Shown: positions 1 through 2,407, counted from the first letter of the stretch. The stretch: 33,887 bases of DNA from a virus (IMGVR_UViG_2740892429_000002:1-33887), one strand, 5' to 3'. Numbers and translations: made by a program. Notes: generated from the letters alone by a model not told the origin.

Positions 1-264
1 ATGCTTGATAGGATGTACCGTTTTTGAAAAACAACTAGTTATACACTTTGTGGGAGCCTATTGGGAACCTGCCATTCTTAGAAAGCATCATTTGTCCATC
101 ACTTCAATTGACCATGATTAAAGCCAGCTATAAACTTGACAAACAAGGTAACTGGTTGCTTAGGCTCAAGTGGGCACACCATAAGAAGCTCATGTTGGTG
201 ATGAAGCGACCCATGAAGTATCGAGAATAATTACAAAGTTCACTATCTTTTTGAGGTTTCTTAT

Positions 265-837
265 ATGTTTTGCGAAGAAAAAGTAGCTCAAATGGCTGCA
301 TACCTACTTCTTAAGCGAGGTGGGCGCATGGCATATCTGAAACTGATGAAGCTGCTCTATCTGTCTAACCGCAAGTCGATTTTGAAGCATGGCAGGATGA
401 TCGGCGAAGATAGCCTTTACTCTATGAAATTTGGACCAGTCATGTCGAATACGCTGAACTTGATTCGTGGTAAGGCTGAAGGCATTGGTGACTACTGGTA
501 CAACTTGATAGAGACGAACGGGCATGATGTGTTGTTGCGTTCAGATCCGAGGGAAATGGATGCAGACGAGGTCTTTGATGAGTTGAGCCGTGCAGATATC
601 CGGATTTTAGATGAAATCTATTCTCTGTATGGGCATATGAACCGATTTGATCTCGCAAACATGACGCATTTAGAAAGCGTTTGTCCAGAGTGGCACGATC
701 CCGGCTATTCCCGTAAGCCTATAGATCTGAAAGAAATGCTGATCAGTGAGGGTAAAAGCGAGGATGAGGCTAATCATATAATTGGCAAAATGGAAGAATC
801 TCAGAAACTTAAGGAATTTTCTTTGCAATTATCATGA
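265..837 (+). CDS. DUF4065/Panacea-domain protein (SocA/GepA-like), putative antitoxin
   Basis: 190-aa ORF with GAGG about 8 nt upstream of ATG. N-terminal motif AAYLLLKRGGRMAYLKLMKLLYLSNRKSILKHG...MKFGPVMSNTL matches the DUF4065 (COG3600) signature as I recall it. Stop overlaps the next start (ATGA). Confidence 0.65.
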   Translation: MFCEEKVAQMAAYLLLKRGGRMAYLKLMKLLYLSNRKSILKHGRMIGEDSLYSMKFGPVMSNTLNLIRGKAEGIGDYWYNLIETNGHDVLLRSDPREMDADEVFDELSRADIRILDEIYSLYGHMNRFDLANMTHLESVCPEWHDPGYSRKPIDLKEMLISEGKSEDEANHIIGKMEESQKLKEFSLQLS

Positions 838-1253
838 CGGATTATCAGCCATACAGGAAAGGAACTGTGCTTGCCCCAACAGGGCCATGCAATCATCTTC
901 ATGTGATTTGTAATGATCCTGTTTATTACCCCGTTAACGATTGTTATTGTGTTTTAGTTGTTAATATTTCTAGTATCAAGGATGGTGTCCCCCACGATCC
1001 GTCTTGCGTCTTGAATTCTGGTGATCATCGCTTTATCAAGCATCCAAGTTATGTTGTTTACGCTGAAGCTATAATTTGGCGAGTGGATAACATGGTTAGA
1101 AAGCAGCGATCGGGTGAGATTTCTGTTCATGATGATATGCCAGAAGCTACATTCAATAGAATTCTGGACGGTTTTGATATATCTGATGAAGTTACGCCAA
1201 AGAACCTTAAATTTAAAAATAAATATTGCGTATCATCTATTGATGATGAGTAA
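834..1253 (+). CDS. hypothetical protein, translationally coupled partner of the Panacea-domain gene (putative toxin/effector)
   Basis: 139-aa ORF whose ATG overlaps the upstream stop by 4 nt (ATGA) with no SD of its own. No family recognised; Cys/His-rich N-terminal half (GPCNHLHVICND...CYCVLVV). Confidence 0.5.
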   Translation: MTDYQPYRKGTVLAPTGPCNHLHVICNDPVYYPVNDCYCVLVVNISSIKDGVPHDPSCVLNSGDHRFIKHPSYVVYAEAIIWRVDNMVRKQRSGEISVHDDMPEATFNRILDGFDISDEVTPKNLKFKNKYCVSSIDDE

Positions 1254-1292
1254 ACAACAGGAATTTTTTCGGTATAGCTTCTGGAGTTTTCT

Positions 1293-1466
1293 ATGGAAGA
1301 TCAAAAAGCAACCAAGCCACAGGTTAAGTTCGACACAATGAAAGCATTCGCAGGTATGGGGGCTGCTGTTGAAGTTCTGATGAAGGCTGCTCCTAATGCG
1401 TTCACTCACGCTACTGTCTCTGGTAAAGAGCAGCAGGGTAAGCTTCGTCGTCGCAAAGTAGCATGA
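1293..1466 (+). CDS. small hypothetical protein (57 aa)
   Basis: ATG preceded by CTGGAG about 7 nt upstream, ends TGA about 20 nt before a strong hairpin plus T-run. Too short for the ORF track; translated by hand (MEDQKATKPQVKFDTMKAF...). Confidence 0.35.
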   Translation: MEDQKATKPQVKFDTMKAFAGMGAAVEVLMKAAPNAFTHATVSGKEQQGKLRRRKVA

Positions 1467-1485
1467 TCATAGCTGGTGCTTTTTG

Positions 1486-1512
1486 AAAACCCGCCTTTAG
1501 GCGGGTTTTTTC
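1486..1512. terminator. bidirectional rho-independent terminator between convergent transcription units
   Basis: AAAACCCGCC-TTTA-GGCGGGTTTTTT: GC stem flanked by an A-tract and a T-tract, so either strand gives a hairpin followed by a U-run. Confidence 0.65.
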
Positions 1513-1513
1513 T

Positions 1514-1795
1514 TTAGTGATGTTCTTTGCCCTTCTGTTTGCCTGTTCTGACCTGTTCCCACTCGATACGTCCTTCTTCTCGTCTTTTGTCTATGTATTC
1601 CGCAAGATCCTGAATATTGATGCAACGTTTTGCTTTTTGTGATGTGCCGATGCGATATGTTGGAACGGGCAACTTACAAGCGTTTGCTTTTGCTTCTGCC
1701 GTGGCTGGACTCATGCCAAAGTACTTTTGGCTAACTGCTGAGAGTTCAATGTTAGGGGTATTGAATTCAGCCATCAGTAAAAACAAGGTGTTCAT
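1514..1795 (-). CDS. excisionase-like / PrtN-family small DNA-binding protein
   Basis: Occupies the xis position at the end of the early-left operon. The ATG at residue 10 of the track ORF has GGAG about 8 nt upstream; motif CINIQDLAEYIDKRREEG resembles PrtN/excisionase-like proteins (from memory). Confidence 0.5.
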   Translation of the reverse strand: MNTLFLLMAEFNTPNIELSAVSQKYFGMSPATAEAKANACKLPVPTYRIGTSQKAKRCINIQDLAEYIDKRREEGRIEWEQVRTGKQKGKEHH

Positions 1796-1831
1796 AATTT
1801 TCTCCATCAAAACCGGCTGCACCCGGGAAAA

Positions 1832-2407
1832 TCATAATTCTGTGCTGGTGGCAGGAATTAATTTCTGCCAGATAGCGGAAACATATTTTGCCTGATGACG
1901 GGCATCGGCCAGGGCGTTGTGCCGTTCGCCATCGAAAGTCATGTCTATTTTGGGGTCGAATCCGATGGAACGCCCAAGCGTAACGATCGTGCGTACATCG
2001 TGGTCATTCCAGTATGCCCACGGGCAGATTTGTCCTGCTCGCTCATAAGCTCCACGTAAAATTACGTTGTCGAAGGTGGCCCCGTTACCCCAGACTTTTA
2101 AATATTTCGTATTGGCTGCGTGCCGGTTAATGAAATGATTTAGTTCTGAGAGAGCATCGCTGATCGACAAAGTATCATCAATACAGATTGCAGCTCGTGC
2201 TTCAGGGCTTTGTTTCAACCACCACAGGATGGTATCGCCGTCAGGTGTAGCTCCTTGCCCCATAGCACTTTCCAGGCTAACAACCGTATAGAATTCTTGT
2301 CCGATGTCTCCGGTTTCTGGAGTGAAGAACACCGCGCCAATGGAAACGATCGGTGCATCCTTATTTTTCCCCATCGTCTCAAGGTCGATCATTAAGTTGT
2401 TCATCAC
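1832..2407 (-). CDS. DnaQ-like 3'-5' exonuclease (DEDDh)
   Basis: 191 aa; IDLETMG near the N-terminus and HNALADA near the C-terminus are the exonuclease acid/His motifs. AGGTG RBS; ATG overlaps the upstream stop. Confidence 0.75.
   Translation of the reverse strand: MMNNLMIDLETMGKNKDAPIVSIGAVFFTPETGDIGQEFYTVVSLESAMGQGATPDGDTILWWLKQSPEARAAICIDDTLSISDALSELNHFINRHAANTKYLKVWGNGATFDNVILRGAYERAGQICPWAYWNDHDVRTIVTLGRSIGFDPKIDMTFDGERHNALADARHQAKYVSAIWQKLIPATSTEL

Follow-up and report, generated by a model that had tools for sequence, protein, structure and literature searches.

What does a prophage carry between its attachment site and its excisionase gene, and do the genes found there act together? 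The locus that raises this question lies at positions 265 to 1,512 of a viral sequence of 33,887 nucleotides (nt), IMGVR_UViG_2740892429_000002:1-33887, the whole of which is referred to here as the window. A preliminary description, made from the sequence alone, had seen at this place a three-gene cassette at the edge of a prophage: a DUF4065 protein, a partner that might be a new toxin, and a third, small open reading frame (ORF). All three ORFs (190, 139 and 57 amino acids) were recovered from the ORF list and the sequence, with the first two overlapping as ATGA at 834-837. Our analysis indicates that the first two genes, which together occupy 265-1253, very probably constitute a PanA-PanT toxin-antitoxin (TA) module located inside the prophage, with a toxin of the published cluster T6. 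The module is real but ordinary, in that it is a member of a family already described and tested and not a new kind of system.

The first gene, panA, encodes a stand-alone Panacea (DUF4065) protein. The earlier domain assignment was confirmed by a profile hidden Markov model (HMM) comparison, in which the product matched the Pfam family SocA_Panacea (PF13274) over residues 27-137 with an E value of 1.8e-18 and a score of 67.9 bits (gathering cut-off, 25.7). The same domain was present in 203 of 203 PanA homologues, and the PHROG match was phrog_1281. An AlphaFold2 model, for which the homologues were taken from a database, reached a pLDDT value of 92.3 and predicts a Panacea core at residues 27-137 and a pair of helices (155-161 and 166-189) at the C-terminus; when the Protein Data Bank (PDB) was searched with this model in Foldseek, no similar solved structure came up. 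A ribosome-binding site (GAGG) can be read at approximately 253-256, and the N-terminus, MFCEEKVAQ, resembles MIFSEQKVAQ, the corrected N-terminus of the PanA of Pseudomonas moraviensis. Relatives from Pseudomonas are approximately 42% identical to the window PanA. In a protein collection clustered at 90% identity, the 190-residue PanA and the 139-residue PanT share one cluster of 541 members, seemingly an artefact of the clustering that might lead automatic annotation astray.

The pairing of panA with the downstream gene, panT, is conserved. A scan of the GTDB species genomes with an alignment of PanT identified 32 loci, 29 of which were testable for an upstream partner. At each of the 29, an ORF of approximately 185 amino acids runs up to or into the start of the toxin gene, and all 29 of these ORFs match PF13274. 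These loci span the alpha-, beta- and gammaproteobacteria, with toxin identities down to approximately 30%, and most of the overlaps between the two genes measure 4 nt. On sequence grounds, an overlap pattern of this kind marks a type II operon with coupled translation and the antitoxin in first place. The RefSeq/PGAP call for panT begins instead at GTG 867 and yields a protein of 128 amino acids (WP_014640052.1), which drops 11 conserved residues and conceals the ATGA overlap with panA. Since the N-terminus M-x-x-Y/F-Q-P-Y-R-K-G-T-V-L-A-P is conserved in an alignment of 32 homologues (47-76% identity), we take ATG 834 to be the true start of panT, the overlap to be real, and the RefSeq call to be too short.

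The only sequence-level match of PanT was to PHROG 19071, of unknown function. Searches of Pfam, NCBIfam and PADLOC gave no usable match, and no hit came from searching all PDB sequences with a profile. Matches to ICMT and DapC that appeared in the Pfam, NCBIfam and PADLOC scans of PanT and the 57-residue ORF were far below the cut-offs and were discarded as noise. The statement in the preliminary description that the partner has no recognisable fold therefore holds at the level of sequence (Pfam, NCBIfam, PDB sequences) but not at that of structure: the predicted structure is clearly MazF/Kid/CcdB-like, with an SH3-like barrel, and adds C-terminal helices at residues 104-113 and 122-131. A profile search of 1.84 billion representative proteins placed 2,671 of them in the PanT family at E<=1e-3, a number that falls to 910 when the threshold is E<=1e-10. 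Among 104 family members of 25-50% identity, His21 is invariant, and at least 90% of the sequences keep Leu22, Asp55, Cys58, Gly63, His65, Phe67, Ser72, Tyr76, Gly113 and Ser117.

A relative of this protein has been studied experimentally. Kurata et al. 2022 (PMC8832971; PNAS 119:e2102212119) surveyed the neighbourhoods of DUF4065 genes, renamed the domain Panacea, and defined 88 clusters of partners, where a pair was required to have its partner gene within 100 nt and a two-gene arrangement conserved across species. Their PanT cluster T6 (Dataset S1) is described from HHpred as 'EndoA/PemK/MazF-family RNases', has no domain-database hit, and comprises many proteobacterial pairs whose genes overlap with spacings of -1 or -4. 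The T6 pair that they tested comes from P. moraviensis (toxin WP_083201923.1, PanA WP_083354365.1). Its toxin was toxic in E. coli, was neutralised by and co-purified with its PanA, and selectively blocked the incorporation of 35S-methionine, which identifies it as a translation inhibitor (PMC8832971).

Two of the loci in our scan connect the window to this cluster. The toxin of Pantoea septica LMG 5345 (L010) is 56% identical to the window PanT and has a 4-nt overlap, and that of Chimaeribacter coloradensis 2016-Iso4 (L009; 'Yersiniaceae bacterium 2016Iso4') is 55% identical with a 1-nt overlap; each assembly occurs once in Dataset S1, under T6, with the spacings found here (-4 and -1, respectively). 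By this comparison the window PanT is assigned to cluster T6, and the earlier suggestion that the partner is a candidate new toxin gives way to membership of an already catalogued and experimentally validated cluster. Its link to the tested P. moraviensis protein runs through the published cluster table and not through a direct alignment. Both pairs consist of a stand-alone Panacea gene upstream of a toxin of approximately 135 amino acids, with an overlap of 1-4 nt, and both toxins lack a database domain and have a predicted EndoA/PemK/MazF-like fold. They differ in setting, since the window pair is on an E. coli lambdoid prophage and the tested pair was scored 'NotPhage'.

On this basis the module would operate as follows. 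Forming a self-contained unit, the two genes would be transcribed to the right, against the direction of the early-left phage operon, and the ATGA overlap would couple their translation. PanA would keep PanT inactive in a complex in the lysogen. Were PanA lost or inactivated, free PanT would stop protein synthesis, most probably by cutting RNA. A candidate promoter at 108-136 (TTGACC-17-TAAACT) scored 9/12 in a promoter scan, which is not above chance, and a search for inverted and direct repeats upstream of panA found only short, chance-level matches, so that we claim no operator.

The preliminary description had allowed that the block might lie beyond the prophage boundary, and comparison with related phages puts the junction at window 1-10. 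The window is 100% identical to sequence of E. coli K-15KW01, where it adjoins zur. The left end of the K-15KW01 prophage was aligned with phages SKA5, mEp460 and PhiR40_1. The upstream host sequence (locus L001) is unlike phage, and phage sequence runs from approximately window 1-10 onward; host and phage diverge upstream of that point, within the 5' coding region of dusA. SKA5 annotates a 40-residue 'tRNA-dihydrouridine' ORF that ends at the junction and adjoins int, and a partial dusA is annotated at the junction in many genomes. The gene order in SKA5 is int (minus strand), the 40-residue mimic of the dusA 5' end, panA, panT, orf57 and xis (minus strand), and the panAT cassette lies between int/attP and xis in the sequenced phages SKA5 and Lys8385Vzw. 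Because of the SKA5 order and the junction alignment, the block is phage DNA between attP and xis that comes to lie at the attL end in the prophage, and a position outside the prophage is ruled out. The 5' end of dusA is the integration site of the prophage, and the window begins at the attL crossover (window 1-27; L001 5792-6010; L002 3905-4027). The phage's 40-codon dusA mimic adjoins int, and integration would restore dusA at the far end of the prophage, beyond the window.

The region between attP and xis behaves as an allelic slot. In the junction alignment, sister phages diverge from approximately window 85-95 onward, and the swapped module ends at approximately 1275, just before the ribosome-binding site of orf57. 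A comparison of window ~90-1275 with L003 3156-3689, L004 222-1212 and L041 1650-2698 revealed at least four unrelated alleles in E. coli prophages integrated in dusA (Table 1). The backbone flanks of the slot are present in 742 genomes. The partner protein of the second Panacea allele, in strain HH107, has a borderline local match to the window toxin (BLASTP E=0.012).

The pair is also found in other phages. T6 homologues occur in temperate phages of Yersinia, Vibrio, Pseudomonas, Klebsiella and Helicobacter, the Helicobacter-associated one being weaker. The annotated context of four of them (YeP1, Klebsiella phi12.5, Sirocco and a Vibrio Vinavirales element) includes an upstream Panacea or PanA-sized gene. 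The pair adjoins int in Yersinia YeP1 and the portal gene in the P2-like Pseudomonas phage Sirocco (L038 929-1875), whose toxin is approximately 48% identical to the window PanT. The Sirocco toxin ORF is unannotated; the record has in its place a short ORF on the other strand. In the Vibrio Vinavirales element PE001 (L040 139-958), a prophage element of 14.5 kb, the pair adjoins a LexA-like repressor. The Pfam match, the pairing at 29 of 29 loci, the predicted toxin fold, the presence in sequenced phages and the TA cargo in the same slot of relatives together bear out the view that a Panacea antitoxin and its toxin form prophage cargo. The arrangement is like prophage cargo ('moron') and defence hotspots, such as those of P2 and P4, in that a brief, self-contained unit ending in a terminator of its own occupies one set place in the phage genome, and in that the slot holds different cargo, including other TA pairs, in sister phages. 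It differs from them in that the attP-xis slot of lambdoid phages integrating in dusA is at most a putative place for defence genes, and in that no slot allele matches PADLOC.

Table 1. Features of the window around the panAT module, and alleles of the attP-xis slot
Feature	Position or occurrence	Strand	Basis or description
attL junction, end of truncated dusA 5' frame	1..27	+	junction alignment; ...APMLD / RMYRF, stop at 25-27
Upstream region belonging to module	90..264	+	in SKA5; replaced in mEp460 and PhiR40_1
panA, stand-alone Panacea (DUF4065) antitoxin, 190 aa	265..837	+	PF13274, phrog_1281, AlphaFold2 model, homologues
panT, PanT cluster T6 toxin, 139 aa	834..1253	+	predicted MazF/PemK/CcdB-like barrel with C-terminal helices
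orf57, function unknown, 57 aa	1293..1466	+	phrog_2741, E=2.2e-35
Intrinsic terminator hairpin	1485..1510	+	terminator scan; 11-bp stem, 6 GC pairs, T-run
xis, PrtN-family excisionase	1514..1822	-	PF11112 E=4.2e-23; phrog_1300 excisionase E=8.4e-40
Slot allele: panAT (T6)	208/5,426 complete E. coli genomes		always chromosomal, single copy per genome, intact, >=97% identical
Slot allele: 177-aa protein	mEp460 (gp23 type) and many O157:H7 prophages		no Pfam match
Slot allele: 179-aa protein and YafO-family toxin	PhiR40_1		PF13957 E=1.9e-21 (YafO-family toxin)
Slot allele: second PanA and 153-aa partner	strain HH107		PanA 32% identical

The most likely benefit of the module, and the one that we favour, would be to protect the lysogen from other phages by a kind of abortive infection; alternatively, the module may stabilise the prophage. 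We prefer the former because unrelated toxin cargo turns over at a single slot and because the pair recurs in temperate phages. A second phage would remove or inactivate PanA, either by host shut-off or through sensing by the Panacea domain, and PanT would then arrest translation before the invader could complete its cycle. This superinfection defence is a serious possibility, though one that falls somewhat short of an even chance. The other TA-like cargo held by the att-proximal slot in sister phages, the place of the Sirocco pair beside the portal gene, and an orientation and termination of the unit that are independent of the lytic operons are all consistent with it, as is the proposal of Ernits 2023 that Panacea has a sensing role, which also ties TA networks to phage defence. 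Location by itself is circumstantial, however; PADLOC-DB 2.0 gave no match at E<=1 for PanA, PanT or orf57 and none for the alternative slot cargos, and no experimental report was found in the literature.

It is possible, but rather unlikely, that the pair serves as an addiction module or selfish stabiliser, which would kill or arrest cells that lose the prophage, or would persist as a mobile TA element that brings no benefit. Such a role would agree with classical type II TA behaviour, with a patchy and mobile distribution across phyla and phage types, and with the single chromosomal copy per genome. Excision, however, removes the module together with the phage, and the cell lyses, leaving little scope for post-segregational killing, and the replacement of one unrelated cargo allele by another is more in keeping with diversifying selection than with stabilisation.

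Several points weigh against the reading of 265-1253 as a TA module with a MazF-like toxin. The evidence for toxicity, rescue and binding comes by analogy from the P. moraviensis relative and not from the window pair. In the published survey, 25 pairs were selected for testing; 8 of them had no toxic effect in E. coli, among these the pairs of E. coli MOD1 and Salmonella phage Emek, both of which belong to cluster T1 and not T6 (PMC8832971). No sequence homology to MazEF or Kis-Kid (PemIK) is detectable, in that Pfam PemK_toxin (PF02452) matched 0 of the 104 diverse PanT family members, and an hhalign comparison of PanT with E. coli MazF was insignificant (probability <1%). In this weak alignment, H21-L22 of PanT lie opposite H28-R29 of MazF and S46 lies opposite T52; Leu22 would then occupy the position of the catalytic Arg29, and RNase chemistry is not assured. 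With a predicted MazF-like fold and no sequence match, neither membership of the PemK family nor the catalytic residues are established at the sequence level. There are further differences from the MazEF and Kis-Kid systems: the beta1-beta2 loop of PanT is very short and C-terminal helices are added, the apparent Leu in place of the catalytic Arg is accompanied by the invariant His21 and the near-invariant Asp55, Cys58 and His65, and the antitoxin is a Panacea protein and not of the MazE/AbrB type.

An unlikely though conceivable extension of these findings is that T6 toxins are more than very divergent MazF RNases and differ from them in chemistry or in their target within the translation apparatus, that the stand-alone Panacea domain of this prophage senses a cue from incoming phage, and that the pair represents a new abortive-infection system at an unrecognised attP-adjacent hotspot of lambdoid phages integrating in dusA. 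A different chemistry or target is conceivable because the long catalytic beta1-beta2 loop is missing, as the Arg seems to be, while His21, Asp55, Cys58 and His65 are kept. The survey's non-toxic pairs and the seeming absence of the canonical catalytic Arg could also mean that the window pair is not a working TA system in E. coli, with PanT being non-toxic or having another function and the pairing reflecting some other cooperation. We consider this improbable: the non-toxic MOD1 and Emek pairs are of cluster T1, toxicity and its rescue by the antitoxin were observed for the T6 member that was tested, and the strong conservation of H21, D55, C58 and H65 among the 104 sequences argues for a constrained active site. 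A CcdB-like PanT that poisons DNA gyrase instead of acting on RNA or translation would be compatible with the predicted fold but is very improbable; the tested T6 toxin, as described above, blocks translation. There is scarcely any likelihood of a type VI mechanism like that of SocAB of Caulobacter crescentus, in which SocA is a ClpXP adaptor that hands the toxin to degradation, as opposed to binding and blocking it, and SocB blocks the DnaN clamp: Panacea is indeed the SocA domain and some homologues are named 'SocA family protein' in RefSeq, but PanA scored only 13.4 bits against the NCBIfam SocA equivalog NF047745 (cut-off 190), on which ground this mechanism was set aside, the partner has a predicted MazF fold unrelated to SocB, and in Kurata et al. 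2022 PanA and PanT, those of the T6 pair among them, formed stable complexes and PanAT was classed as type II (PMC8832971).

In the preliminary description orf57 was counted as the third gene of a cassette, but no third gene is conserved with the pair. The ORF has a ribosome-binding site (GGAG) 6 nt upstream, and tblastn found it in only five phage records, from the E. coli phages SKA5, Lys8385Vzw and mEp460, the last of which carries it without panAT. It was absent from all of the 30-odd panAT loci outside the E. coli phage loci L001-L003. In Kosakonia and Pluralibacter there is no orf57, and the panT stop is followed by a hairpin terminator and then by an xis gene of 80-84% identity. Because mEp460 carries the ORF but no panAT, and the other panAT loci lack it, orf57 is best read from these comparisons as an independent small phage ORF and not as a third component of the module. 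Its alleles differ by two synonymous and two non-synonymous changes, which are uninformative on coding, and nothing usable was found for it in Pfam, NCBIfam or PADLOC.

The terminator hairpin beyond orf57 closes the rightward panAT-orf57 unit between convergent genes. It had been called strong and bidirectional, of which the latter is borne out only in part: the scan scored the hairpin on the plus strand only, and the U-run on the minus strand is 4 nt. An Rfam scan of window 1-2000 found only sub-threshold terminator look-alikes. The excisionase-like neighbour noted earlier proved to be a PrtN-family gene on the minus strand, which is the first gene of the early-left operon and forms the right border of the cargo slot. 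The block is AT-rich, as had been remarked, though modestly so, with a GC content of 0.36-0.47 against 0.45-0.56 further into the phage. The rest of the nearby sequence has the make-up of the early-left region of a lambdoid phage: the repressor is encoded on the minus strand, and the regulatory genes that lie past it are on the plus strand. Its genes include an Rv2179c-like exonuclease, Ea22, DUF551, YfdR-like, DUF2303, a CI-type repressor, CII and Rha. The gene adjoining xis, at 1832-2407 on the minus strand, encodes a protein with an Rv2179c-like 3'-5' exoribonuclease domain (PF16473, E=1.4e-74), and the label 'exodeoxyribonuclease VIII' that it bears in several phage records is probably a mis-annotation.

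These results assign a 'hypothetical protein' of approximately 200 complete E. coli genomes (the WP_014640052 type, with its truncated start) to a validated toxin family. They also identify the T6 family as a recurrent cargo of temperate phages in several genera, and the attP-xis slot of lambdoid phages integrating in dusA as a place where unrelated TA-like pairs replace one another. With the window pair, a convenient natural system is at hand in E. coli for finding out what sets off a stand-alone Panacea antitoxin and what a T6 toxin cleaves or binds. The remaining interest of the locus lies in the conserved His/Asp/Cys/His set on a MazF-like scaffold, in the trigger of the Panacea antitoxin, and in the att-proximal cargo slot.
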